A stretch of 64,000 nucleotides of DNA from an uncultured Acidobacteriota bacterium (GTDB lineage: Bacteria; Acidobacteriota; Thermoanaerobaculia; Gp7-AA8). Location of the stretch: NCBI GenBank assembly GCA_963741955.1, contig CAVUKB010000004.1, positions 608,001 through 672,000 of the forward strand. The letters are read 5' to 3'. Numbering within the stretch: the stretch's first letter is position 1; each line of letters starts with the position of its first letter. A model generated the notes under the pieces. That model searched no databases and was not told where the DNA came from. It worked only from the letters and a program-made list of their open reading frames with translations. Position numbers and translations under genes: made by a program. Below are positions 2,703 to 40,500 of the stretch, in pieces.

Positions 2703-2827
2703 TGGCGCGATCTCCGCCGGTCAACAGCACAATTCTTGCACTTCGGGTCGACGTACTGATCCGTGGATCGGAACGACGGATGTGCGTCTCTGTCGCGACG
2801 AACATCGGATCTTCGGAAGGCCGACGG

Positions 2828-5800
2828 ATGAAGAGACTGAGGGAAAGGGGCACAGCGATCCGCTATGCGATCGCGGTTGGTGCCGTGGCGGTCGCTGCCG
2901 TGGTGACCTGGGCCTTGTCGCCGTCATTCAGTGTCGCTCTCTTCCCCTTCTTCTTTCTCGCCGTGGTGATCGGATCGACGTTCGGAGGCATCGGCCCCGG
3001 ACTCCTCTCGACTGCATTGAGTGCGGCGGCGCTCGAATTTCTCTTCATCGCCCCCGGGGGAGTCGGATGGAGCTCTCGAGAGAGCCTGATCCGGATCTCG
3101 GTATTTCTGGTAATTGCGCTGGTGGTCAACTGGATCTCTGAGGCGGCAGATCGAGCCCGAGGTCTGGCCGTGCTCCGTGGAAGGGAGCTCGAGATCACCC
3201 TCGCGAGCATCGGCGACGCCGTAATTGCGAGCGATTCCTCGGGGCGGATCACGTTCATCAACCGCGCTGCTGAACGGCTGACGGGATGGAGCGACGGAGA
3301 GATTCACGGCCGCGACTGCGACGCCGAGCTTCCGCTGATCAGCGAGGAGACGCGAGAGAAGCTCGAATCCCCGGTCGCTCGCGTCATCAGCGAAAGTGTG
3401 ACCACCGGTTTCGCCAACCGTACTCTTCTCATCGCGCGGGATGGAACGGAGATCCCGGTCGCAGGGAGCGCGGCTCCGATCGTCGATTCCGGAGGGCGGA
3501 TCCTGGGCGCGGTGCTCGTCATCTCGGATGCGCGCGAAGAGCGAAAGGCGCGAAGGCGGGAGAGAGTTCAGTCTGCCGTCTCGCGCCTCCTCGCCGAGTC
3601 CCGGCCTCTCGAGGAGAGCAGCGAAGAGCTGCTGCGCGTGATCTGTGAGGAGATCGGCTGGATCGCGGGTGAGTTCGGGGTGGAGGACCAGGGGACGATT
3701 CGGATCCTGGAATTCTCTTCGCGCAGCCCCGACCTCACTGCGGCGTTCGAGGACATCGCGCGAAAATGGCGATTCAAGCCCGGGGAAGGAGTGACGGGCC
3801 GGGTTCTGGAAACGCGGAGCGCGGTCTGGGTCCCGGACGTTCAGGCCGACTCCGGCTTTCCGCGGGCGCTCTCCGCGAACCAGGCGGGGATTCACGGCGG
3901 ATTCGGCGTGCCGATCCTCTTCGACGACCGGATTCTGGGATCGCTCTCTTTCTACTCTGATCGACTCGAGGAGAGAGACGATCAGCTCCTCGCAGTGATG
4001 CAGTCGCTGGGAGCACAGATCGGACAGTTCATACAGCGACGGCGAGCCGAGGCTGCGCTGCGAGACAGCGAAGAGCTTCACCGGCTGATTACCGGCGCCG
4101 CGTCGGACGCGATCCTGACCATCGATCAATCGGGTTGCATCGTCTTCGCGAATCCTGCCGCAGGATCGCTCTTCGGATACGCGCCTGATGAGCTGGTGGG
4201 AAGGGACCTGAACGTCCTCGTTCCCGAGGAGTACCGGAGCCGCGACACGACGGGGCTGCAGCGTTACATCGAGACCGGTGAGAAGCGGATGTCATGGGAA
4301 CGGATCCGGTTCCCGGGACTCCGTCGCGACGGAACACGGATGGAGATGGAAATCTCTCTCGGCGAGCTCGATCGCGGAGGAATGCGGTTCTTCACGGCGG
4401 TCGCGCGCGACGTCACCGAGCGGGAGCGGTTCATCGCGGAGCGGGAACGGTTGACGCGGCAGTTCGAGCTCCTGATGGATTCGACCAGCGAGGGGATCTA
4501 CGGGACGGATCTGGATGGTCGCTGCACGTTCATCAACTCTGCGGGGGCGAGAATGCTCGGATACCCGCCGGAGGAGCTGATCGGCCGGAACATGCACGAG
4601 CTGGTGCACCACACCCGCAAGGACGGTCGGGCCTATCCCGAGTCAGAGTGTCCGCTCACCCGCGCACTCAGCTCGCGCGAGCCTGACCGCGCGGATCACG
4701 AAGTCCTCTGGAAGAAGGACGGCACCTGGTTCTATGTCCAGTACACGGCGAACCCGATCGTCGAGAACGATCGACTCCGCGGAGCCGTAGTCACGTTTCT
4801 GGACAACACCGAGCAGAGGCTGTACGAGCAGGAGCTCAGGAATCGTGAGACCCAGCAGAGCGTGATCGCACATCTGGGGACCCGAGCGGTGACGGGGATC
4901 GACGTCGACACGCTGATGCAGGAATCGGTGAAGAAGATCGCAGAGACCTTCGACGTCGGATTTGCGAAGATCCTCGAGCTTCTCGCCGACGGCAGGTTCC
5001 TGGTGAAGGCGGGAGTGGGATGGAAGCCCGGGCTGGTGGGGAATCTCGTCGTGCCGGCCGGCGAGCGATCCCAGGCGGGTTACGCGGTACTGACGAAGGC
5101 GCCGGTGATCGTGGAGAACCTCGAGGACGAAAAGCGGTTCGAGGATCCGACCATGCTCGAGGAGCACGGCGTGGTCAGTGGTCTGAGCGTCGTGATCGAA
5201 GGAGAGGAAGGTCCGTACGGAGTCCTGAGCGTCCACTCGCGGGAGCCGCGCAGGTTCAGCGAAGACGACATCAGCTTTCTGCAATCCGTGGCGAACATCG
5301 TCGGGGAAGCGACGGAACGGAAACGTCGCGAGCTTCTGGTGATCGAACAGAGACGATGGCTGGAGGCGACTCTTTCGGGCATCGGGGACGCGGTGGTCGC
5401 GACCGACGCAGCAGGAGTGATCGTCTTCATCAATCCGATCGCCGAGCGGCTCTCCGGCTGGTCGAGGCTCTACGCTGTCGGACAGCGCCTGCGGCGGGTG
5501 TTCGATGTCCGGGAGGAATCGGACGGAAAAGCGGTCGGCGATCTGATCGAAATGGTGAAGCAGAAGGGAGAGCCTTTTCGATATCGGGGCGATCTCGTCC
5601 TTCGGTCAGTCGACGGTCAGGCCACGCCGGTCGACGTGAGCGGATCACCACTGCGCGATCCGACCGGGACAATCGTCGGAATCGTGATGGTGTTCCGCGA
5701 CATTGCCGAGCGGCGACGGAACGAACGGGAGAAGACCGCCTTGACTCTGCAGATCGAAGCCGAGCGCGAACGGCTGGTCAACATCGTCGCCAACGTGCCG

Positions 5801-7891
5801 GGAGTGGTCTGGGAGGCGTGGGGCGCACCGGATCGTGCCACACAGAAGATCAACTTCGTGAGCAACTACGTGGAGTCGATGCTCGGTTACTCGGTCGACG
5901 AATGGCTCTCCACCGAGAATTTCTGGTTGAAGATCGTCCATCCCGAGGATCGGGAACGTGCGGCGGCGGAAGCGGCAGCCAAATTCCGCAGCGGCCGGGG
6001 CGGGACCAGCGAGTTTCGCTGGATGACGAAAGACGGCCGGGCCATCTGGGTGGAAGCGACTTCGGTCCCCATCCCGGACGAAAAGGGGAATTCGATCGGA
6101 CTGCGGGGCGTCACTCTCGACGTCACCGCCAGAAAGGAAGCAGAGCAGGAACGTCTGCGGCTGCTGGAAAACGAACGGAAGGCGCGGGAACAGGCCGAAG
6201 TCGAACGGGCACGTTCCGCATTTCTGGCCGAAGTCAGTACGGAGCTTGCGGGATCTCTCGATTACCGGGTGACGCTCGGTAAGACTGCGCGGCTCACGGT
6301 TCCCCGGATCGCCGACTGGTGCGCGATCGACGTGCTGGATGACGATGGTCTTCCCCAGAGGCTCGCGCTCGAGCATACCGATCCGGAGAAACTCGCTCTG
6401 GTTCGTGAGATCGAGCAGCGCTACCCGCCGGCTCCCGGCGCGGAAACGGGCGTACCCGGCGTGCTTCGCTCCGGGAGATCGGAGGTCTATCCGGCGATCG
6501 ATGACGCGATGCTGAAAGAGGCGGCGCGTGATGAAAAACACCTGGAGCTCCTTCGCGCACTGGGATTCCGCTCTGCCATGATCGTTCCCCTGATCGCTCG
6601 CGACCGGACCCTCGGCGCGATCACGCTCGTGACGGCCGAGTCCGACCGTCATTACGGACGCGACGATCTCTCATTGGCGGAGGAGATGGCCCGCCGGGCC
6701 GCGCTCGCCGTCGACAATGCGCGCCTCTATGCGGTCACGCAGCAGGCGAACCGGGCGAAGGACGAGTTCCTCGCCACTCTCTCCCACGAGTTGCGGACAC
6801 CGATGACCTCCATTCTCGGTTGGGCGAGGATGATGAACATGGGAGAGCTCGACGAGGAGACGCAGATGCTTGCGCTGGAGACGATCGAGAGAAGTGCATC
6901 GGCGCAGGCCCAGATGATCGAGGATCTTCTCGACGTATCCCGGATCGTGCGTGGCCGGCTTCACCTCGAAATGAAACCGGTCCGGCTGGATAGAGTGATC
7001 GCGTCGGCAATCGAGACAGTGAAGCCGGCTGCGGAGGCCAAGGATGTGACCCTGAGGACGGAGCTCGATGAGGAGGCGGGAGATGTGATCGGTGATGACG
7101 GCCGGCTGCATCAGGTGATCTGGAACCTCCTCTCCAACGCGATCAAATTCGCCCCGAAGGGAGGATGGATCGAAACGCGGCTCGAGCGGGTGGAGTCGGT
7201 TGCCCGCGTCTCGGTCTCCGACAATGGTGTCGGGATCCCGCAGCAGTTCCTTCCGTACGTATTTGAGCGCTTCCGCCAGGCGGAAAGCTCGACCACGCGG
7301 AGCTATGGCGGGCTCGGGCTCGGGTTGGCGATCGTACGGCATCTGGTGGAACTGCACGGCGGGACCGTCTCGGCCTCGAGTGAGGGCGAAGGGAAAGGCG
7401 CGACATTCACCATCGAGCTGCCGATCATGGCCGTTCAGTTGGCAGAGGCGCTCGCGGGCGGTGAGGGGACGGCGGAGCATGAGCCGGAGAGCGAACCGGG
7501 AGTCGAGATGCCGGAGCTCGATTCGATGCGGGTCCTGGTGGTCGATGATGAGCCGGACGCGCGGAAGCTCATCTCGACCGTCCTCGAGCGGGGAGGAGCG
7601 GATGTGCGGAGCGCACCGTCGGCCGCCGAAGGGCTGGAGGCGTTCCGTCGATGGCGGCCCGATGTGCTGGTCAGTGACATCGCGATGCCGGGGGAGGACG
7701 GTTTCGCGCTGCTGAAGGGGATCCGCGAGAACGGAGGAGAGACCATTCCGGCGATCGCCCTGACGGCGTACGGACGCCCCGACGATGAACGCCGTATCCT
7801 CGAGGCGGGTTTCGACACGTACCTGCGGAAGCCGGTCGAGCCGACGAGACTCGCCTGGGCCGTCGCGAGGTTCCGGAAAGCGGTCAGGTGA
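2828..7891 (+). CDS. Hybrid sensor histidine kinase (DUF4118-like membrane domain, multiple PAS and GAF, HisKA, HATPase, REC)
   Basis: FLATLSHELRTPM H-box, NLLSNAIKF N-box, GGLGLGL G-box, C-terminal VVDDE...SDIAMP receiver. Confidence 0.95.
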   Translation: MKRLRERGTAIRYAIAVGAVAVAAVVTWALSPSFSVALFPFFFLAVVIGSTFGGIGPGLLSTALSAAALEFLFIAPGGVGWSSRESLIRISVFLVIALVVNWISEAADRARGLAVLRGRELEITLASIGDAVIASDSSGRITFINRAAERLTGWSDGEIHGRDCDAELPLISEETREKLESPVARVISESVTTGFANRTLLIARDGTEIPVAGSAAPIVDSGGRILGAVLVISDAREERKARRRERVQSAVSRLLAESRPLEESSEELLRVICEEIGWIAGEFGVEDQGTIRILEFSSRSPDLTAAFEDIARKWRFKPGEGVTGRVLETRSAVWVPDVQADSGFPRALSANQAGIHGGFGVPILFDDRILGSLSFYSDRLEERDDQLLAVMQSLGAQIGQFIQRRRAEAALRDSEELHRLITGAASDAILTIDQSGCIVFANPAAGSLFGYAPDELVGRDLNVLVPEEYRSRDTTGLQRYIETGEKRMSWERIRFPGLRRDGTRMEMEISLGELDRGGMRFFTAVARDVTERERFIAERERLTRQFELLMDSTSEGIYGTDLDGRCTFINSAGARMLGYPPEELIGRNMHELVHHTRKDGRAYPESECPLTRALSSREPDRADHEVLWKKDGTWFYVQYTANPIVENDRLRGAVVTFLDNTEQRLYEQELRNRETQQSVIAHLGTRAVTGIDVDTLMQESVKKIAETFDVGFAKILELLADGRFLVKAGVGWKPGLVGNLVVPAGERSQAGYAVLTKAPVIVENLEDEKRFEDPTMLEEHGVVSGLSVVIEGEEGPYGVLSVHSREPRRFSEDDISFLQSVANIVGEATERKRRELLVIEQRRWLEATLSGIGDAVVATDAAGVIVFINPIAERLSGWSRLYAVGQRLRRVFDVREESDGKAVGDLIEMVKQKGEPFRYRGDLVLRSVDGQATPVDVSGSPLRDPTGTIVGIVMVFRDIAERRRNEREKTALTLQIEAERERLVNIVANVPGVVWEAWGAPDRATQKINFVSNYVESMLGYSVDEWLSTENFWLKIVHPEDRERAAAEAAAKFRSGRGGTSEFRWMTKDGRAIWVEATSVPIPDEKGNSIGLRGVTLDVTARKEAEQERLRLLENERKAREQAEVERARSAFLAEVSTELAGSLDYRVTLGKTARLTVPRIADWCAIDVLDDDGLPQRLALEHTDPEKLALVREIEQRYPPAPGAETGVPGVLRSGRSEVYPAIDDAMLKEAARDEKHLELLRALGFRSAMIVPLIARDRTLGAITLVTAESDRHYGRDDLSLAEEMARRAALAVDNARLYAVTQQANRAKDEFLATLSHELRTPMTSILGWARMMNMGELDEETQMLALETIERSASAQAQMIEDLLDVSRIVRGRLHLEMKPVRLDRVIASAIETVKPAAEAKDVTLRTELDEEAGDVIGDDGRLHQVIWNLLSNAIKFAPKGGWIETRLERVESVARVSVSDNGVGIPQQFLPYVFERFRQAESSTTRSYGGLGLGLAIVRHLVELHGGTVSASSEGEGKGATFTIELPIMAVQLAEALAGGEGTAEHEPESEPGVEMPELDSMRVLVVDDEPDARKLISTVLERGGADVRSAPSAAEGLEAFRRWRPDVLVSDIAMPGEDGFALLKGIRENGGETIPAIALTAYGRPDDERRILEAGFDTYLRKPVEPTRLAWAVARFRKAVR

Positions 7892-7913
7892 GGGCGCTGG
7901 CCCCGCCGCCGCC

Positions 7914-8058
7914 AGGAGTGGGGTCAGGCCGGTTTTCCAGGAGTGGGGTCAGGCCGGTTTTCGGTTCTGGGTCCGGGAGTGGGGTCGGTCCGGGAGTGGG
8001 GTCAGGCCGGTTTTCGGTTCTGGGTCGGTCCGGGAGTGGGGTCAGGCCGGTCTTCCGA
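7914..8058 (+). repeat. Array 1 of the GGGGTCAGGCC motif (4 full copies, 1 partial)
   Basis: Copies at 7920, 7945, 7998 and 8038, partial at 7981; G/T-rich linkers. Confidence 0.9.
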
Positions 8059-8220
8059 ATCCCGCTTTTCGCGATCCACCTTCGACCGCCGGAGTCGCCC
8101 ATCCTCCTCCTCGAGCGGTGGCGGTTCGACTTCGCGGACTCCGCAGTGAGGAGAGTATTTCTGGCCCCTTCCCCTCTCGAAAGATGTTGCCCCACGACCT
8201 GCCGGAAGCCTCTCCGGGGA

Positions 8221-8229
8221 TGCTAGAAT
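8221..8229 (+). promoter_or_regulatory. Putative extended -10 (TGCTAGAAT) for dnaE
   Basis: TGn-TAGAAT about 65 bp upstream of the ATG. Confidence 0.5.
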
Positions 8230-8293
8230 CGCCTCCAAGCTCCGGTTGTTGAACCCAGAGACGCGTCTCGCCTCGACTGGATCCCGAAAAGCC

Positions 8294-12076
<3,783 letters not shown>

Positions 12077-12097
12077 GCCGCGCACCTCGCTTTGACC

Positions 12098-12306
12098 GGG
12101 GTCAGGCCCGTTTTCCGCGCTTCGCGTGTGGGGTCAGGCCCGTTTTCGCCTCCAGGACCATGACTCCGCCTCGATTGTTTCCGGCTCGATGTTGTTGCCG
12201 TGTTGGGTCAGTTGCTGGGTGGGGGTCAGGCCCGTCTTTCGCGTTGAGTTGCTGGGTGGGGGTCAGGCCCGTCTTTCGCGTTGGAGCGGGGTCAGGCCCG
12301 CCTTCC
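12098..12306 (+). repeat. Array 2 of the GGGGTCAGGCCCG motif (5 full copies)
   Basis: Copies at 12098, 12130, 12222, 12259 and 12288 with variable spacers. Confidence 0.9.
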
Positions 12307-12612
12307 ACGGTAGAAGGGGCCCGGGGCGATCTTTCTGCTTCGAGGGCTTTCTGCAGCGTGTCCGGGGTGCGTCTGGTCGAATTCGGGGCTCGGCGTCGAG
12401 TACGTCAGTGTTCGCTGGAAGTCACCTCTCTGTTCTCCCCGAGATCGCCGGAGCAGAGCCTGTCCGGACCGCCCGCAGGCCTCGAGACCCTTGTTGGGAG
12501 GTTTCGTACACTCACGGAGATGAGAGAGAAGTACCGGAGGCGCGGTTCCGATCGAGGCCCCGTACGCATCCGAGGGATCCCTCGGATCCGTGACGGGTCG
12601 ATGCTCCAGCCA

Positions 12613-12654
12613 GGATCGCGCTCCGCAGCAGAAGTCACGTGAATCGTCCGGGCT
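12613..12654. repeat. Right-end fragment of MITE family B
   Basis: GATCGCGCTCCGCAGCAGAAGTCACGTGAA...CCGGGCT matches 29992-30032. Confidence 0.65.
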
Positions 12655-12710
12655 CAGGAGCGTCGCAAAAACGCTTTTCTCAACGCGGACTCCGAGGTAC
12701 GCTCGTATTC

Positions 12711-13766
12711 ATGAGTAGACCTTTGAGGCTCGATTTCGAGCATGCGGTTCATCACGTTACCAACAGAGGAAATGACCAGAGAGATATCTTTCGGGATGAC
12801 GGAGATCGGATCAGGTTTCTGGATCTCTTCGCGGAGACGGTCATACGGTACAAGTGGATCGTCTATTCGTGGACGTTGATGGACAACCATTTCCATCTCG
12901 TCGTCGAGACGGTCGAACCGACCCTGTCACGTGGAATGCACTGGCTGTTGACGGAGTATGTGAAGTACTTCAACAGGAAGTACAAACGGCACGGCCACCT
13001 GTTTCAGGGACGCTTTCATAGTGTACTGGTCGATTCTGAAGCATACCTGAAGAACCTCACTCGGTACGTGGCGACGAACGCCGTGCGTGCAGGACTCGCG
13101 AGAAGTATCGAGCAGTGGGAATGGAGCAGTTTCTTCAGCACGGCGGGCATGCCTACGCGAGCGCCGGCTGTTCTGTCCAACGGAACGGCGAAGATTCTGG
13201 CCCAGTTTCACGCCACCGATATGGACGAAGCGCGGAGGCTCTACCTCGAATTCATGCGGGTTGCGGTCGATCAGATCGAAGACCCCTGGAAGAACCTGCG
13301 AAACCGCATTTACCTCGGAGACGAGGAATGGATCGAGCAGATCCAGAGAAAGATCGACGAGAAGCCTCGCAGTAGCGATCACGCCAAGGCGGAGCGTCAT
13401 CTGTTCCGGCCGACGATGAAGCAGGTGGTGGAAGCAGTCGCGCAGACGTTCCGAACGGGTCCGGACGCGGTTCGAAGAGGCCATGGTGGTCGCGCGAGGA
13501 TGCTCGTGGCTCATCTCGCTGTCTATGAAGGGGTGCACCTGAGAAGGACGATCGCCACGACTCTCCGACTGAAGAGTGCCTCGAGAGTATCAGCTTTACT
13601 TCGCGAATGTAGAGAGGCGATTCGGAGCGACGACGAGTTCCGCGCGGTCGTGAAGCAGGCGAGGGAGTTGCTGGATCACCGTCCACCCGCGGGTGCGTAC
13701 CAACTTCAGCGGCCAGTCAGGGATTTGACGAGAGAATCGACGGACTCCGCCTTCACTCGAACGTGA
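12711..13766 (+). CDS. REP-associated tyrosine transposase-like protein (Y1 HUH, IS200/RAYT family) with C-terminal helical extension
   Basis: MSRPLR...HHVTNRGN...IF...LMDNHFHL (HUH)...HLFQGRF...YVATNAVRAG...WSS; about 150-aa tail resembling DnaA-C/HTH. Confidence 0.9.
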   Translation: MSRPLRLDFEHAVHHVTNRGNDQRDIFRDDGDRIRFLDLFAETVIRYKWIVYSWTLMDNHFHLVVETVEPTLSRGMHWLLTEYVKYFNRKYKRHGHLFQGRFHSVLVDSEAYLKNLTRYVATNAVRAGLARSIEQWEWSSFFSTAGMPTRAPAVLSNGTAKILAQFHATDMDEARRLYLEFMRVAVDQIEDPWKNLRNRIYLGDEEWIEQIQRKIDEKPRSSDHAKAERHLFRPTMKQVVEAVAQTFRTGPDAVRRGHGGRARMLVAHLAVYEGVHLRRTIATTLRLKSASRVSALLRECREAIRSDDEFRAVVKQARELLDHRPPAGAYQLQRPVRDLTRESTDSAFTRT

Positions 13767-13991
13767 CTTCGTGCTCGGCTTCTTTTCCGGCGCAGGAAGG
13801 AGAAGTCGGTCTCTTGAAGTTAGGACTATCTCCTCATCGACGTTCATCCGAGACGAGAGATATCCGGATCGTCGATGGTTGCGTATGACGCGCTCTCAGG
13901 CGAAATCGACGGTCGGAATGTTGAGAGAACATGTCGACCTCCAAATCAGACTCACGAGGTGCGCTCTTCTCGAACATGGCCCGACGAAGAG

Positions 13992-14054
13992 GAGCCTGAC
14001 CCCCAAGCGGAGCGCGCAGGTGAAGCCTGCCGAACCGAATACGGGCCTGACCCC
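13992..14054 (-). repeat. Array 3: two GGGGTCAGGC copies in reverse orientation
   Basis: GAGCCTGACCCC at about 13992 and GGGCCTGACCCC at 14043-14054. Confidence 0.8.
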
Positions 14055-14149
14055 GTTCAGACCGGTACGTTTCAGGCCTTGGTACGTTGGAGCAAAGTGG
14101 GCTGCCTCTCCGCCGACTGACGAAGAGGCAGCGATTCGGCAAGGGACTG

Positions 14150-14719
14150 TCAGGATCGCGACAAGGCGTTGTCGGGAACAAAGTAGAGATCGAGTGCGGT
14201 GTGGGTGGCCAGATCGCCCGTGCGGAAAGCAGCCCTGACACCTTGCCCAATGCGTAGGGGTGCGTTGGCTCCGACGAGGTAGCTCTTCACAATCGTGCAC
14301 AGGCCCGGAATGCGGACGTCGATCTGGTAATACGGAGTGGGGATCTCGAGGCCGGTGCCCCCACGTTCGACGAGGGTGTAGGTGTAGACATAACCGCGCG
14401 GCTCGGGAACCTCGTGCCAGACCATCGGCTGATGGCAGTCGGGGCAGTCGGCCCGCGGCGGCACCCAGAGCTCGCCGTCTCCCCTGCTGATCGGGCAGGC
14501 TGCGTTGATGCAGCGCGTCGCCATGAGCCGACCTTCAGTAAGACCTTTGAAATAGGGTGTGAGCATTCCGTACGTGTGGTAGTGCGTTCCCTCTTCAGCG
14601 AAACGTGGAACGTGGAGAACCCAGGTTCCCTTCACGAGATCGACCGATGAAGGGGCGATGAGGGGAACGCTCCGCGGCCTCGACGGGACCGATGAGTCAA
14701 CGACGTTTTTCTGGGACAT
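14150..14719 (-). CDS. Zn-ribbon/OB-fold protein (DUF35 family), thiolase partner
   Basis: ATRC...C, PPRADCPDC, GYVYTYT, IGQGVRAAF; directly downstream of the thiolase-like gene. Confidence 0.85.
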   Translation of the reverse strand: MSQKNVVDSSVPSRPRSVPLIAPSSVDLVKGTWVLHVPRFAEEGTHYHTYGMLTPYFKGLTEGRLMATRCINAACPISRGDGELWVPPRADCPDCHQPMVWHEVPEPRGYVYTYTLVERGGTGLEIPTPYYQIDVRIPGLCTIVKSYLVGANAPLRIGQGVRAAFRTGDLATHTALDLYFVPDNALSRS

Positions 14720-14728
14720 TATTCTCTC

Positions 14729-16129
14729 CTACCATGCCTTTTCGAGGACGGCGCAAGTGACGTGACTTCCCACCCCGGCGTGGGAAATTGCAAGTCCGCG
14801 CCGAGGATTCTGCACCTGAAGGTTCTTCCAGTCGGAAGGCTTCTGCTTCCCATATCTCGCCCACAGTTTCGGATCGCCGTGGAACTGCTCATACTTTTCC
14901 TGGATCTGCCATGCTGCTTCGGCGCACTGGAAGATGCCGGTGGCACCGACGGCGTGCATGGTGCCGAGCAGACCCCCGGAGAGATTCGCCGGACATTTGC
15001 CAGGCTGCCCGTTCTTGGGGTTCTCGAGATACGACTCGCCCGAGGTGACGAACTCCTGCTCGTGTCCATACTTGGTCAGGCCGACGTCTCCGTACGTCTG
15101 GAGGTCGGAGATTGTGAACGCGTCGTGTGTCTCGACGAGGTCGAGATCCTCGATTGGTACGTGAATCCCCGCCATCCGGTAAGCCATGTACGCCGCGAAT
15201 CGCGTTGCTCCGAAACTTTCGAAGCCCGGCCATCGCCCATCCTGGCTTTTCATTTCCTCGTAGAGATGGTCGTACTCATGTGCGCTCTCATTGGGGAGCA
15301 AGGGGATCTCCATTGGTCTGCGGTCACCGGTCCGGAGCGTGTGGGAGCCGGCGGCTATGTAAAGTCGGACCGGCCGATCGGTGAGCTCGTAGGCCACCTT
15401 CTCGGAACAGAGCAGTGCGGCACTGGAACCGACGCTCATGGCGCAGCATTCGAGAAACCGGAGCGGGTCCGAGACGATCTCGCCCGACAGCACTTCTTCG
15501 ATGGTGTGGTGCCCCGGCTGCTGTGCGTACGGAGACGAGCAGGCGTTGCCGCGATTCCGGACCGCGATCTCGGCGCGTACGCGTTCATCCACGCCGTACA
15601 TCTCCTGAAAGCGTCGCGCCATCGGCGCGTAGTAGCTCGCGTAGTTGCGGGCAAGCCTGGTCTCGAAATCCTTACAGGCTGCAGACGCGATGTAGTAGTT
15701 GCCGGTCCAGGTCTTCACCTCGTCCATCCGCTCCCATCCGAGTACGAGGGTGCAATCACTCATTCCGCTGGCGATCGTCGTTGCACCCATGAGCATGGCG
15801 GAGCCGCCCGTCGCGCCTCCTGTCTTGACCCCGACGTTCGGGAGAGGGTCGAGGCCCAGGTAGTCGTGGACCTTCGCCTCGCAGAGGAGCTGGTCCTGGA
15901 AGTGATCTGCGAACTCCCCATACACGGCGAAATTGAGCATTTCCTTGACGGCAAGGGGCTCCTTTTTCAGATCGTTCTCTTCGAGAAGCATACGGAACGC
16001 CATCATGGAAAGCTCTTCGAGTCTCTTCTCGGGATACCGTTTTCGGAAATCACTCGTACCTGCGGCGACGAGGTACACCGCGCGGGTCCACTTCGGAACC
16101 CTGAGATTTCCCTGTCCGAACTTGATCAT
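14729..16129 (-). CDS. Thiolase-like protein (SCP2/non-decarboxylating type), canonical Cys apparently absent
   Basis: VETHDAFT and NLSGGLLGTMHAVGATG motifs; GGAGGAG RBS; KTGGATGG where ExACASG is expected. Confidence 0.85.
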   Translation of the reverse strand: MIKFGQGNLRVPKWTRAVYLVAAGTSDFRKRYPEKRLEELSMMAFRMLLEENDLKKEPLAVKEMLNFAVYGEFADHFQDQLLCEAKVHDYLGLDPLPNVGVKTGGATGGSAMLMGATTIASGMSDCTLVLGWERMDEVKTWTGNYYIASAACKDFETRLARNYASYYAPMARRFQEMYGVDERVRAEIAVRNRGNACSSPYAQQPGHHTIEEVLSGEIVSDPLRFLECCAMSVGSSAALLCSEKVAYELTDRPVRLYIAAGSHTLRTGDRRPMEIPLLPNESAHEYDHLYEEMKSQDGRWPGFESFGATRFAAYMAYRMAGIHVPIEDLDLVETHDAFTISDLQTYGDVGLTKYGHEQEFVTSGESYLENPKNGQPGKCPANLSGGLLGTMHAVGATGIFQCAEAAWQIQEKYEQFHGDPKLWARYGKQKPSDWKNLQVQNPRRGLAISHAGVGSHVTCAVLEKAW

Positions 16130-16380
16130 CTTTCTCCTCCTGAGGTGACGAGACCTGGTGCGCCGGTGGCGGTTGCGTCGCCGGACGTGCGGCGAGTGAA
16201 TTCCGCCTGCGGCGTGATGCGAAGCTCTGAGCTCATGGAGAGGAGGGCTTCCGCCGCGACGATCGCGGAAGGAGCGGGAGATCTCCGAAAAAACGTGACC
16301 GTGTTGACTGAAAAGTAAGTCCGCGGAGGAGGCAGGCGCCAGTCCTAGTGGAATTTCGGGTGTCGAGCTGGACCTGCAGC

Positions 16381-16720
16381 ACGGAAAACGGGCCTGACCC
16401 CGCGTTGGTCGACCCCGCGTTGGTCGCCGAGTCGATCTGGAGTTGGGGGAATAGACGAACCTGGATTTGCCGAAGAAAGCGCGAATGTACGGAAAACGGG
16501 CCTGACCCCGAGTTTCCCCGAGTTTCCGGCTGACCCCAATTCTCCGGCTCGACGGAACAGAGAGCGGGCCTGACCCCGACGGGAAACCGAAATCCGGCCT
16601 GACCCCCGGCCACGGGTAGACGGAACAGAGAGCGGGCCTGACCCCGGCGGGAAACCGAAATCCGGCCTGACCCCCGGCCACGGGTAGACCCCCGGCCAGG
16701 GGTACCGGCCGACCCCCGGC
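16381..16720 (-). repeat. Array 4 of the GGGGTCAGGCC motif (6 full copies plus partials, reverse orientation)
   Basis: GGCCTGACCCC at about 16390, 16498, 16566, 16596, 16634 and 16664; includes a 68-bp tandem duplication. Confidence 0.9.
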
Positions 16721-16764
16721 GCGAGGCCGCCGCCACCGTCCCGCACGTGTAGAATGGCGCGCTC

Positions 16765-17505
16765 ATGGGGGACGACGCTGCGATCCGGGTCGAGGGGCTC
16801 CGAAAGCGATTCGGTGAGGTGATCGCCGTCGACGACCTGTCGTTCGCCGTCGGACGCGGCGAGATTCTCGGGCTGCTCGGCCCGAATGGGGCCGGCAAGA
16901 CCACCACGATTCAGCTGCTCCTCGGCCTCACCACACCGGATCGCGGCTCGATCCGGATCCTCGGACTCGACCTCGCGAGCAGCCGCCTCGCCATCCTCCA
17001 GCGCGTGAACTTCTCCTCCGCCTACATCGCCCTCCCGTCCAATCTCACCGTCCGGGAGAATCTGAACGTCTTCGCCCGGCTTTACGGCGTGGAGGGGAGG
17101 ACGAGGAAGATCGACGAGGTCCTCGAGCTGTTCGAGATTCCGGAAGTCAAGCATCAGGTCAGCGGCGCACTCTCGTCCGGACAGCAGACGCGCCTGAACC
17201 TCTGCAAGGCTTTTCTGAATGACCCCGAAGTCCTTCTCCTCGACGAGCCGACAGCGAGTCTCGATCCGGACATCGCGGACAAGGTACGAAAGACCCTTCT
17301 GCGCATCCAGAAGGAGCGCGGAGTGACGATCCTCTATACCTCCCACAACATGCGCGAGATCGAGCTGATGTGCGACCGGGTGATCTTCCTCTCCCACGGA
17401 CGGATCGTCGCCGAAGGCTCGCCACGCGAAGTCGTCGAAAGGAGCCGTTCCGGCGACCTCGAGGATCTCTTCATAAGCATCGCGAGAGGAGCACATCGCG
17501 AATGA
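16765..17505 (+). CDS. ABC transporter ATP-binding protein (ABC-2 exporter)
   Basis: GPNGAGKTT, LSSGQ, LLLDEPT, TSH. Confidence 0.95.
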   Translation: MGDDAAIRVEGLRKRFGEVIAVDDLSFAVGRGEILGLLGPNGAGKTTTIQLLLGLTTPDRGSIRILGLDLASSRLAILQRVNFSSAYIALPSNLTVRENLNVFARLYGVEGRTRKIDEVLELFEIPEVKHQVSGALSSGQQTRLNLCKAFLNDPEVLLLDEPTASLDPDIADKVRKTLLRIQKERGVTILYTSHNMREIELMCDRVIFLSHGRIVAEGSPREVVERSRSGDLEDLFISIARGAHRE

Positions 17506-37572: not shown

Positions 37573-40500
37573 TCAGCTCTGGGCGCGTTCACCGGTGATC
37601 GACCAGATCGCCAGGGCCTTCTGTTCCGTCTCGTGCCGGTGATGGGATCCCGTCGCCGGTGACGCGCTGACCGGACGCCCGACGTAGTGGAGCTTCTCCT
37701 GACCGACCATCTGGAGGAGGCGCTCCTTCACGAAGTCCCACCCCCCCATGTTGCGCGGCTCTTCCTGCGTCCACGCGATCGATCTCGCGTTCCGGTATTT
37801 CGCGAAAATCTCGTCGAGCATCGCTTCGGGAAAGGGATAGAACTGCTCGAGCCGCACGACGGCGACGTCGTCCCGCCCGAGCTCGTCCTTCGCCGACGCG
37901 AGATCGTAGTAGACCTTCCCCGAAGCGAGCACGATCCGGGTGACCGCATTCGCCGCAGCTTCGTCCGCGGCCGCGAGCTTCGGATCGTCGAGCACCGGCT
38001 CGAAACGCCCCTGCAGGAGCTCCGAGCTCTGCGAGACGGCGGCCGGATGACGGAGGAGCGACTTCGGCGTGGTGATGATCAACGGTTTCCGCGGCTGCAC
38101 CCGCACCTGCCTCCGCAACAGATGAAAGTACTGCGCGGGAGTGCTCGGATTCGCGACCTGCATGTTTCCTTCCGCGCAGAGCGTGAGGAAGCGCTCGAGC
38201 CGGGCACTGGAATGCTCCGGCCCCTGGCCTTCGTATCCGTGAGGGAGAAGGAGCACCAGCCCGCTGTGCTGATCCCATTTCTCCTCGGCACTGGAGATGA
38301 ACTGGTCGATGATGATCTGCGCGCCGTTCATGAAGTCGCCGAACTGCGCCTCCCAGAGAACGAGGGCAGTCTTGTCGACGACGGAGTATCCGTACTCGAA
38401 ACCGAGTGCTCCGTATTCGGAGAGGAGGGAATCGTAGACGGCGAACGTGATCGGGCCGGCACTCTGAGCGACTTCGCCATTCGGCAGCTCGACCGATTCT
38501 TCGCGGTTCGCGAGCTGGTTGAGCGGGATGAAGCGCTCACCGCTCTCGTAGTCGTAGAAGATCGCGTGGCGCTGGGAGAAGGTGCCGCGTGCGCTGTCCT
38601 GACCGCTGAGACGCACTCGATGTCCCTCGAGCAGGAGTGAGCCGAACGCGATCGATTCGGCGGTCGCCCAGTCGAGAGGATCGTTCCCTTCGACCATCGA
38701 CGCGCGCCTCTTGACGAAAGGCTTGAGTTTCGGATGCAGGGTGAACGTTTCGGGGACGGTGGTGAGAGCTTCTCCGATCCGCCGCAACTCGTCCGTCTCG
38801 ATGCCGGTATCGGGCGACGGCTCGTTCTGCAGTCCGGTGATCTCTTCGTCACTCCAGAGCGGTCGGTGAGCCTCGGGCGGTTTTCCCTCCCCGTGAGTCT
38901 TGTCGAATGCTTCCTGGAGTCGCTGGCGGAACGAGTCGAGCCACTGCTCGGCTTCCTGCGGTCCGAGATCTCCCTTGCGCAGGAGCGATTCGGTGTAGAG
39001 CTTCCGGACCGAGCGATGATCCTTGATCAGCTTGTACATCTTCGGCTGGGTGAGCGACGGATCGTCCGCCTCGTTGTGGCCGTGCCGGCGGTAGCAGATC
39101 ATGTCGATGACCACGTCCTTCTTGAACTGCTGCCGGTACTCGAACGCGAGCTTCACTACGCGGATGCACGCTTCGGGATCGTCGCCGTTGACGTGGAAGA
39201 TCGGTGCCTGAACCATCTTCGCGACGTCGGTCGCATAGACGGTCGAGCGGGCGGACTCCGGTCCGGTGGTGAACCCGATCTGGTTGTTCACCACGATGTG
39301 GATCGTTCCGCCGGTGCGGTAGCCCTTGAGCTGCGAAAGGTTCAGCGTTTCCGCGACCACGCCCTGGCCGGCGAACGCGGCGTCGCCGTGGAGGAGGATC
39401 GACATGACGCGACGGCGCTCGGTATCCCGAAGGAGTTTCTGCGTGGCGCGCGTCATTCCTTCCACGATCGGATCGACCGCTTCGAGATGGCTGGGATTCG
39501 AAGCAAGGGTGATCCCCACTTCTCGTGACGAGGGGGCGACGTGGGTGCCGCGCGCGCCGAGGTGGTACTTGACGTCGCCCGATCCCTGGGTGGTGTTCGG
39601 ATCGATGTCGCCTTCGAATTCGTAGAAGATCTTCTCGTACGACTTTCCGACGATGTTGGCGAGCACGTTCAGACGTCCGCGATGGGACATCCCGAGCACG
39701 ACTTCTTTCATCTCGCTGTCGGCGGCCTCGGAGAGGAGTGCGTCGAGCATCGGGACGAGGGTCTCGGCTCCTTCCAGTGAGAAGCGCTTGTGCCCCACGT
39801 ACTTGGTGTGGAGGAACTTCTCGAAGGCCTCGGCGTCGTTGAGCTTCAGGAGAATCCGTCGCTTCGTGGCATCGTCGAGGGGAGTGCCGTTGCGCGACGG
39901 CTCCATCCGTTCCTGCAGCCACTTCTTCTCGACCGGATTCTGGATGTGCATGTACTCCGGGCCGATCTTCCCGCAGTAAGTCTCACGGAGTACGTCGAGG
40001 ATCTCGCGGAGCCTGGCCTTCGGTTTTCCCGACAGGCCCCCGGTGATGAACTCACGATCGAGATCCCAGATGGTCAGCTTGTAGTAGATCGGATTGAGCT
40101 CTGCATGGTGACCGACATGGTATTCGAGCGGGTCGAGATCACCGAGCAGATGTCCGCGTACGCGGTACGCGTTGATCATCTGCAGCACGCCTGCTTCCTT
40201 GCGGATGACTTCTTCACTCCGGGCGCCGGAGAGGAATGAGACGCCGAGATCTCGGGACCAGGAGACCGGCTCGTAGGGAATCCGGAGATCGCGGAAGATC
40301 TCGTCGTAGAAGTTGTCGGTTCCGAGAAGGAGGGCGTGAATGCGGGCGAGAAACTGTCCCGATTCTGCCCCCTGGATGATCCGATGATCGTAGGTGCTGG
40401 TCATCGTCATCACTTTCGAAATTCCGATCTCCGCGGCGACCCGGGGATCCGTGCCGGCGTATTCGGGGGGGAAGTCGATCTGGCCCGTGGCGATGATGCT

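Follow-up and report, generated by a model that had tools for sequence, protein, structure and literature searches.

RAYT-like genes that are flanked by terminal inverted repeats (TIRs) and not by repetitive extragenic palindromes (REPs) were described by Di Nocera et al. in 2013 (BMC Genomics 14:522; PMC3733652), who named the encoded proteins TIRYTs (TIR-associated tyrosine transposases) and the units TIRtrons. According to the available text of that paper, many TIRs share the sequence GGGGWSAS, many are found as dimers or clusters, and the most sharply defined group of TIRYTs is that of the Acidobacteria. Quentin et al. (2018, BMC Genomics 19:475; PMC6006769) placed 20 of 26 TIRYTs in subclass 2.1 of the TnpA_REP proteins, which is defined by a C-terminal domain resembling Bac_DnaA_C, HTH_23 or HTH_28, and the accessible part of their paper states that GGGG[AT][CG]A[CG] is unlike a DnaA box and that REP-like sequences were not found near subclass 2.1 genes. 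TIRYT biochemistry, a cleavage site and mobility data are not reported in the available portions of PMC3733652 or PMC6006769, and our literature search returned no later work on the class. Here we analysed a 64-kb window (C4:608001-672000 of assembly G000, 5.44 Mb in 16 contigs) from an uncultured Acidobacteriota bacterium, in which arrays of a short repeat lie on both sides of a gene for a Y1 HUH transposase. With good confidence, we regard this locus as a TIRtron, a mobile or formerly mobile unit in which the TIRYT gene is located between inverted copies of its own terminal repeat. This kind of unit is known and barely studied, and is present here with unusually developed, locally confined end arrays.

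The 11-mer GGGGTCAGGCC has 17 matches with at most one mismatch in the window, while dinucleotide-preserving shuffles gave a mean of 1.63 (sd 1.44, maximum 8) and reached 17 in 0 of 100 cases. The copies occupy four successive intergenic regions (histidine kinase/dnaE, dnaE/Y1 gene, Y1 gene/DUF35-type gene and thiolase-like gene/ABC ATPase), and no match was found in the window outside these arrays. All nine copies to the left of the HUH gene are on the + strand and all eight copies to its right are on the - strand, as follows:

7920..8055, + strand: outer-left array with four full copies (7920, 7945, 7998, 8038) of the subtype GGGGTCAGGCC-GGT[TC]TTC, and a truncated head GGGGTC at 7981-7986 within a 17-nt tandem duplication
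12098..12305, + strand: inner-left array, putative left end of the TIRtron, with five copies (12098, 12130, 12222, 12259, 12288)
12711-13766, + strand: TIRYT gene; the reading frame is open from GTG 12639 and the probable start is M25 at 12711, for a protein of 351 aa
13986..14054, - strand: inner-right array, putative right end of the TIRtron, with two inverted copies (heads 13993-14003, with one mismatch, and 14044-14054)
16384..16720, - strand: outer-right array with six full copies (16391, 16499, 16567, 16596, 16635, 16664), and truncated heads both within the 15-nt duplication of 16396-16425 and as GGGGTC-only units (16680-16720)

The repeat unit is about 18-20 nt long and consists of an 8-nt head of the form GGGGWSAS, which is GGGGTCAG in all 17 window copies, and a tail that is rich in pyrimidines and specific to the lineage (here GCC[CG]GTTTTC), giving the consensus GGGGTCAGGCC[CG]G[TC][TC]T[TC]. 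The copies are irregularly spaced (25-108 nt from start to start) and their spacers are variable and in part tandem-duplicated, with a 68-nt unit present twice at 16545-16680 and the 15-nt unit present twice at 16396-16425. The innermost left copy lies about 400 nt upstream of ATG 12711, and the intervening 12305-12710 is unique sequence with no counterpart on the right side. The outer-right array separates the divergently oriented thiolase-like and ABC ATPase genes. The original prediction, made from the letters of the window, had described about 17 non-palindromic motif copies with a pyrimidine tract in four intergenic regions, a strand flip across the transposase, no copies elsewhere in the 64 kb, variable and partly tandem-duplicated spacers, outer arrays that bracket dnaE and the thiolase-like/DUF35 pair, and repeats without the hairpin or GTAG form of REPs; the counts, coordinates and folds given here agree with it on all of these.

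Inverted pairs across the Y1 gene reach 28 nt at 86% (12088-12115 vs 14037-14064). The outermost arrays (7920-8055 and 16596-16674) share the tail subtype GGCCGG[TA]TTTCGGTT, which is found only there and is 95% complementary over 22 nt, and an inner subtype, GGCCCGTTTTCCG, is present at 12098/12130 and at 16391/16499 (12098-12150 vs 16384-16510; 21 nt, 100% complementary). The tail subtypes are thus in mirror-like order around the gene, which suggests exchange between the arms or inversion between the oppositely oriented arrays. The window arrays are not palindromic and their single-stranded DNA folds are no stabler than those of shuffled sequences (z = +1.00, +2.25 and +0.17), which rules out a hairpin or REP nature; the GTAG tag is absent from the window repeat unit. 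A known RNA family was also ruled out, as an Rfam scan of 7000-17500 (E <= 1) returned a sole sub-threshold match, to a snoRNA model within dnaE (E 0.59). A CRISPR array, with its regular repeats of 24-48 nt and unique spacers of like size, was rejected in view of the unit of about 18-20 nt, the irregular spacing and the partial self-duplication.

Judged by its sequence and by a structural model, the gene product is a Y1 HUH protein of the RAYT-like kind, and its C-terminus resembles domain IV of DnaA. Pfam Y1_Tnp matches residues 38-146 (E 2.6e-10), and the active site is predicted to comprise the HUH motif H84-F-H86 and the catalytic Tyr143, with H84, H86 and Y143 invariant across 32 aligned homologs. 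The AlphaFold model (mean pLDDT 82.9) has TnpA_REP 4er8 as its best match in the PDB (E 4.7e-6, TMt 0.70), and its C-terminus superposes on the DNA-binding domain of Mycobacterium tuberculosis DnaA (3pvp; TMt 0.88, root-mean-square deviation 1.4 A, 96 columns). Searched against the PDB, a profile of the 32-homolog alignment matched DnaA (2hcb/1l8q) over domain IV at E 1.7e-4 and TnpA_REP 4er8 at E 0.0087, so that profile and model together place a DnaA-domain-IV-like helix-turn-helix (HTH) at about residues 255-346. In the alignment to DnaA, the conserved Arg287 of the family matches the Arg of '..ARKIAMYL', and 'S.G.VS' stands in for 'KDHTTV'. Pfam run on the single sequence found no C-terminal domain, Bac_DnaA_C included, even at E <= 10, and the DnaA relationship therefore needed the profile and the model. 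A protein search gave at least 1,284 proteins at E <= 0.001 among 8,000 candidates scored; the homologs among the matches listed are mostly 317-345 aa long and carry source names such as 'REP element-mobilizing transposase RayT' or 'transposase [Thermoanaerobaculia bacterium]'. The GC content at third codon positions (GC3) of the TIRYT gene is 0.68, against 0.73-0.81 in its neighbours.

The locus combines a Y1 HUH motif and its Tyr, a DnaA-like C-terminal HTH, inverted flanks that are not REPs, and GGGGWSAS. As RAYT-like genes between inverted non-REP repeats with GGGGWSAS were named in 2013, this is not a new system, and the part of the original prediction that saw an undescribed one has to be given up: going by the available text of both papers, TIRYTs and TIRtrons were named in PMC3733652 and equated with TnpA_REP subclass 2.1 in PMC6006769. 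On the TIRtron reading, the flip in orientation reflects the polarity of the element's left and right ends and is no signal of replication or transcription.

The distribution of the repeat over the genome is markedly local. The exact 11-mer GGGGTCAGGCC has 35 genome copies, of which those outside the arrays are mostly followed by T, in place of the C or G of the arrays, and are without the pyrimidine tail. The 18-mer GGGGTCAGGCCCGTTTTC, with up to three mismatches, has 24 matches in 5.44 Mb, with 17 at the window locus (within 8.8 kb), four in an array at C4:435862-436027 and three singletons, i.e. 21 of the 24 in two loci. The repeat family is almost confined to the neighbourhood of the gene. 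The array at C4:435862-436027 (L001:5862-6044), 185 kb from the gene, is a solo + array of four copies and truncated heads. Its intergenic region is divergent, and the gene downstream of the array has a putative excisionase-type HTH (read by eye) at its start. Cumulative GC skew on the contig rises monotonically over 120-700 kb with no turning point near 621 kb; the flip is therefore not at an origin or terminus.

A sister paralog at C5:333901-334941 (48% identity to the window protein; tree support 99/99) is flanked by a repeat of its own, [AG]GGGTCAGAGC[CT], with seven + copies upstream and - copies downstream. Its repeat GGGTCAGAGCC has 17 of 22 genome copies within C5:312-342 kb, in arrays that occupy six intergenic regions over 29 kb (C5:312900-341708). 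A paralog with its own variant clustered at its own gene fits local (cis) seeding, and the local enrichment at both loci, each with its cognate variant, is what would be expected if, as the original prediction proposed, an HUH system seeds repeats at its own locus. Other Y1_Tnp genes with flanking arrays of their own were seen in the same genome at C7:941113-942260, C10:469095-470823, C6:499700-501611 and C5:694969-697604. Short RAYTs with GTAG-containing REP arrays are present at C7:941.6 kb (seven copies left, four right) and C10:469.9 kb (eight left, at least six right), and two short Y1 genes (open frames of 163-164 aa) have arrays inverted across the gene, in one case with a unit that includes GTAG. 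As both REP-flanked and TIR-flanked Y1 genes are found in this assembly, REPtrons and TIRtrons coexist in one genome.

We then compared the homologous loci of relatives. The 41 genomes searched were all from outside the species and genus of the source, and 18 related genomes provided 40 loci in which the homolog is full-length or nearly so, each oriented on the gene. The set left out the unpublished genome G022, matches that were partial or short, and a small number of full-length matches; no conclusion drawn here depends on G022 or on a second unpublished genome, G030. Within 600 bp of the gene, GGGGWSAS occurs 46 times on + and 6 times on - upstream, and 63 times on - and 6 times on + downstream, at a density of 2.6/kb as compared to 0.33/kb further out and 0.13/kb inside genes. 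A correctly oriented copy was found on the left at 26 loci, on the right at 29, on both sides at 19 and on at least one side at 36 of the 40. As two or more copies are present on one side at 17/40 loci and three or more at 11/40, end arrays are common in the family. The units of relatives likewise consist of the head and a lineage-specific tail, often ..CTT[CT]G.TTT... Genome-wide mapping of the motif and the same mapping in the genomes of homologs had been put forward with the original prediction, which named dispersal over the genome, with strand unrelated to the transposase, as one outcome that would speak against it; the motif is not dispersed, the flip recurs at the 36 loci, and the prediction stands on this point.

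Beyond 600 bp, GGGGWSAS at 0.33/kb is close to the genomic background of G000 (0.38/kb) and is unoriented (14 + and 15 - far left, 11 + and 18 - far right). The 8-mer being too degenerate to follow distal spread, family-specific 17-20-mers were used. In one relative (G006), each of the two TIRYT genes has a repeat family of its own with 24 copies, of which 10-11 are found no more than about 6-7 kb from the gene and the remainder mostly form -> <- pairs 50-450 bp apart. In G024, 19 of 26 family copies are on the contig of the gene; G027 and G007 have 24 and 8 family copies, and G019 has 21 TIRYT matches and 118 repeat copies, many of them in one-orientation arrays of 4-9. Each gene has its own repeat variant, enriched near itself. 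Along the protein tree the head variants TCAG, TCAC and ACAG switch several times. A separate search for related loci in genome contigs gave 11, distant or partial only, which were not used.

Sequence comparison indicates that the class includes recently mobile members, in the same and in related genomes. The tree holds near-identical within-genome TIRYT pairs (branch lengths 0.02-0.1), and a third TIRtron family of G000, with its type copy at C12:4166-5919, has copies and fragments that are 85-98% identical on C4, C6, C7, C9 and C10. In the aligned ends of this family the flanks diverge on either side at precisely 7 nt beyond the head, with GAACTTT-GGGGTCAG-GGCTTCG at the left end and, reverse-complemented, at the right end GAAGATC-GGGGCCAG-GCCTTCG; the right-end head GGGGCCAG is outside the published GGGGWSAS. 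The few aligned ends of the third family show no evident target duplication, for which no systematic test was made. In G024, two repeat-bounded copies are 95% identical over 1,462 bp and extend past the head by 8 nt and by about 3 nt. In families with definable ends, the mobile unit measures 1.5-1.8 kb and carries the TIRYT gene alone, and many decayed TIRYT fragments are present in G000. The third-family copies on C4 are at 14760-17225, 39186-40091, 143388-143990, 171710-172270 and 179632-180241, and in the copy at C4:39186 the piece from terminus to head is reiterated three times. Contig C12 itself is 98% identical over 5 kb to C7:443129-448131.

The arrays also hold a recurrent footprint within the head. 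In many of them heads break off at 6-8 nt, after which the preceding sequence is repeated, as at 16396-16425, where GACCAACGCGGGGTC is directly followed by a second GACCAACGCGGGGTC and then by AGGCCCG. Among truncated copies of 15 families, this tandem-duplication signature was found in 9/21 heads of 6 nt, 6/15 of 7 nt and 4/12 of 8 nt, and in 0/20 chance 5-nt seeds and 1/18 matches of 9-11 nt. An unbiased scan for exact tandem duplications (period 8-45) in 50.7 kb of flanks gave 52, of which 31 contain a head, and the right boundary was at head nt 6-8 in 18 of these 31, from 11 families. By position, the boundaries of the head-bearing duplications fall at nt 6, 7 and 8 in five, seven and six cases, at nt 1-4 in seven, and at nt 13 or beyond in six. 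In the third multi-copy family the duplicated piece runs from the element terminus to the head, and in two independent copies the adjoining flank ends in GGGGTC. From the boundary hot spot at head nt 6-8 we infer DNA breakage and rejoining at the 3' edge of the head. The boundaries suggest a cleavage or joining site there, and on this sequence evidence the 3' edge of the head is likely to be both the predicted Y1 nick site and a favoured target for insertions and end reiterations. Head-to-tail runs of the heptamer GGGGTCA were seen at C1:114176-114212, C4:124706-124726, C6:19890-19910 and C5:1192647-1192667; these head-only microsatellites may be the extreme case of head-bounded duplications.

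These features can be arranged into a working scheme. The TIRYT would bind the head, plausibly on duplex DNA, by its DnaA-like HTH, in which the base-reading segment is unlike that of DnaA. Tyr143 would then nick one strand at about head nt 6-8 and rejoin it, and as the ends are inverted, we propose that it cuts the top strand on the left and the bottom strand on the right. Repeated, mostly cis-acting cleavage and strand transfer would multiply the ends into tandem arrays, and the same events would seed satellite arrays in nearby intergenic regions. Extended to the class, the scheme states that TIRYTs may read an unstructured duplex 'box', GGGGWSAS, and no hairpin, through the HTH, cut at nt 6-8, act preferentially in cis and spread polar arrays of their own end sequence over 10-30 kb of neighbouring intergenic regions, a generalisation that we offer tentatively and hold to be rather doubtful in its full form. 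If it is true, a nest of inverted arrays around essential genes like dnaE would offer inversion and duplication a permanent substrate.

The genes around the arrays are as follows:

2780-7891, + strand: hybrid histidine kinase of 1,703 aa with DUF4118, several PAS and GAF domains, HisKA/HATPase and a receiver domain, adjoining the first array upstream
8246..12076, + strand: dnaE, DNA polymerase III alpha (Pfam DNA_pol3_alpha E 2.1e-103, PHP, finger, HHH_6)
14150..14719, - strand: DUF35-type gene by Pfam (ChsH2-like OB fold and zinc ribbon)
14729..16131, - strand: thiolase-like gene, probable start ATG 16129-16131 preceded by aggagg
16765-17505, + strand: ABC ATPase by Pfam

dnaE, which is bracketed by arrays, the DUF35-type gene and the thiolase-like gene are treated here as context. 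At the dnaE loci of 17 relatives (the tblastn match and about 1.5 kb on each side), the TIRYT, DUF35-type, thiolase-like, histidine kinase and ABC ATPase genes were not found, and the repeat arrays were likewise absent from the loci returned. An element conserved in linkage with dnaE is ruled out by these loci, though the relatives are distant (55-57% identity or less in the dnaE C-terminus).

Several observations weigh against a TIRtron, or against parts of the scheme. No near-identical second copy of the window element was found in G000, the closest paralog being only 48% identical, and the window protein has Ala where at least 90% of homologs carry Pro148. Its score with the NCBIfam RAYT model NF047646 (REP_Tyr_transpos) is 61.4 bits, short of the cut-off of 80. 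For action of the TIRYT on its own repeats, the evidence is indirect and consists of the duplication boundaries and the sharp ends of sister families, and the boundaries have a register ambiguity of 1-2 nt. The authors of PMC6006769, in the accessible text, consider that the DnaA-like domain might play no part in target recognition. The array at C4:435862-436027 is without a Y1 gene nearby. At the paralog, the distal arrays are +, +, + and - on the left and + on the right, so that two of five break the rule of left + and right -, and at C5:320.4/320.7 kb the strand switches with no gene in between (a + array facing a - array, 320428-320859); these facing arrays look like an 'empty' TIRtron. 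Owing to this irregularity the polarity rule is firm for proximal copies only. Further, all informative arrays in G000, which are few, are co-oriented with the adjacent gene, a pattern that a transcription-linked bias could also produce. Lastly, the sequencing-run contigs compared (from the probable source sample and one further run of the same study) end at the arrays, at 7969/7997, 12239/12254, 16609 and 16677. The contig joints listed lie inside dnaE, are of low likeness and come from other organisms, and the depth of the source-sample contigs is inflated over 12612-12918 by the mapping of other TIRYT genes from the community.

Some of these observations could be read differently. The TIRYT might be a domesticated, non-mobile protein that binds the iteron-like arrays by its HTH and organises or regulates the region of dnaE and the thiolase operon, with the HUH site vestigial or retained for array upkeep. 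This would account for a single divergent copy in the genome, for arrays resembling iteron or DnaA-box clusters next to a protein whose C-terminal domain superposes on that of DnaA, and for the position of arrays in promoter-bearing regions, upstream of dnaE, of the thiolase-like gene and of the HTH gene at C4:435.9 kb. We consider it unlikely, as the HUH motif and Tyr are intact and invariant in the family, the gene position is not conserved at the 17 dnaE loci, GC3 is below that of the neighbours, and the sister families, with their multiple copies, sharp ends and decayed fragments, have a life cycle like that of insertion sequences. The original prediction had offered, as a second possibility, a nested composite transposon, in which the outer arrays are the ends of an 8.8-kb unit moving dnaE, the TIRYT gene and the DUF35/thiolase pair. 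The tail subtype common to both outermost arrays and the mirror-like recurrence of the inner subtype on both sides agree with such a unit, and beyond this order we found no support for it; with few subtypes, the order can also come from arm exchange or inversion, the definable mobile units hold the TIRYT gene only, and the broken polarity of two distal paralog arrays does not help. The C-terminal 300 aa of dnaE had one match in its own genome, no search for a vacant site, a junction or a second context being made, and the relatives (55-57% identity in the dnaE C-terminus) are too distant to show a vacant site. A composite unit is accordingly very improbable in our judgement.

Host sequence features oriented by the flanking genes, such as untranslated-region or protein-binding repeats with the HUH gene as a bystander, would explain why arrays are co-oriented with the adjacent gene at 7.9 and 12.1 kb, at C5:320.4/320.7 and 333.4 kb and probably at 341.5 kb, and why that at C4:435.9 kb has no Y1 gene. 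Such features would hardly keep to TIRYT genes at 36/40 loci, come in paralog-specific variants or run antisense to the TIRYT gene at its right end, and the repeats have no RNA or DNA structure, no Rfam family and only 24 copies in 5.4 Mb, so that little room is left for this explanation. A replication-oriented polar motif of the KOPS or Chi kind, flipping at an origin or terminus, shares with the arrays their strict strand polarity on either side of one point; it can be set aside almost entirely, as 24 copies are not a dispersed motif, the GC skew does not turn near 621 kb, and both orientations are present within 400 bp at C5:320.4-320.9 kb.

Taken as a TIRtron, the locus and its relatives predict a substrate of about 20 nt made up of head and tail, a nick at head nt 6-8 and a candidate duplex-binding domain, and they give evidence that repeat families stay near their gene. 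Confirmation would reveal how ends without hairpins can serve a RAYT-type enzyme, and in what way elements of this sort remodel the intergenic DNA near core genes.

Compared with the IS200/IS605 TnpA proteins (IS608, ISDra2), the window protein has the same Y1 HUH fold and Pfam Y1_Tnp domain, and the sister TIRtron families act like small insertion sequences, the third family of G000 having the multiple near-identical copies that the window element lacks. The ends of IS200/IS605 elements are subterminal hairpins on one strand and not inverted repeats, as stated in the accessible part of PMC6006769, whereas the window ends are inverted and unstructured and have a conserved 8-nt head; assignment to IS200/IS605 was rejected on the missing same-strand hairpins and near-identical copies. 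With the REPtron (classic RAYT, TnpA_REP 4er8) the locus shares the catalytic fold and a gene located between its own inverted repeats; classic examples in G000 are those at C7:941.6, C10:469.9 and C6:499.9 kb. It differs in having no palindrome or hairpin, no GTAG tag, tens of copies and not hundreds, an extra C-terminal region of about 200 aa with the HTH, and a RAYT score below the cut-off. A classic RAYT/REPtron was rejected for want of a palindromic REP with GTAG tag, a score at the curated cut-off and about 100 or more dispersed copies. The Rep proteins of parvoviruses and geminiviruses are HUH nucleases that work with short duplex binding sites, directly repeated and next to the nick, and the termini of parvoviruses are inverted. 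They offer a functional analogy for the reading of an unstructured repeat; the relationship shown is that of the HUH core only, and no replication function is suggested.

The closest match is the TIRtron/TIRYT of subclass 2.1 as set out in the available text of PMC3733652 and PMC6006769: a RAYT-like Y1 HUH protein longer than RAYTs and with a Bac_DnaA_C-like C-terminal HTH, a gene between inverted non-REP repeats with GGGGWSAS, repeats in small clustered families, and an acidobacterial setting, the close homologs of the window protein being source-named Thermoanaerobaculia. From the units described there the window differs in that its ends are tandem arrays (five and two proximal copies), with more arrays bracketing dnaE and the thiolase pair, and in that its repeat family is almost confined to 8.8 kb. 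Grouped TIRs like these may already be shown in Figure 9 or Additional files 4-5 of PMC3733652. The truncated heads are unmentioned in the accessible parts of that paper, and the near-confinement of a family to the surroundings of its gene and the duplication boundaries at head nt 6-8 go beyond what the available text of the two papers holds. An apparently new system is in this way explained by a known class, and an uncharacterised branch of HUH proteins gains a testable prediction of its substrate and cut site.

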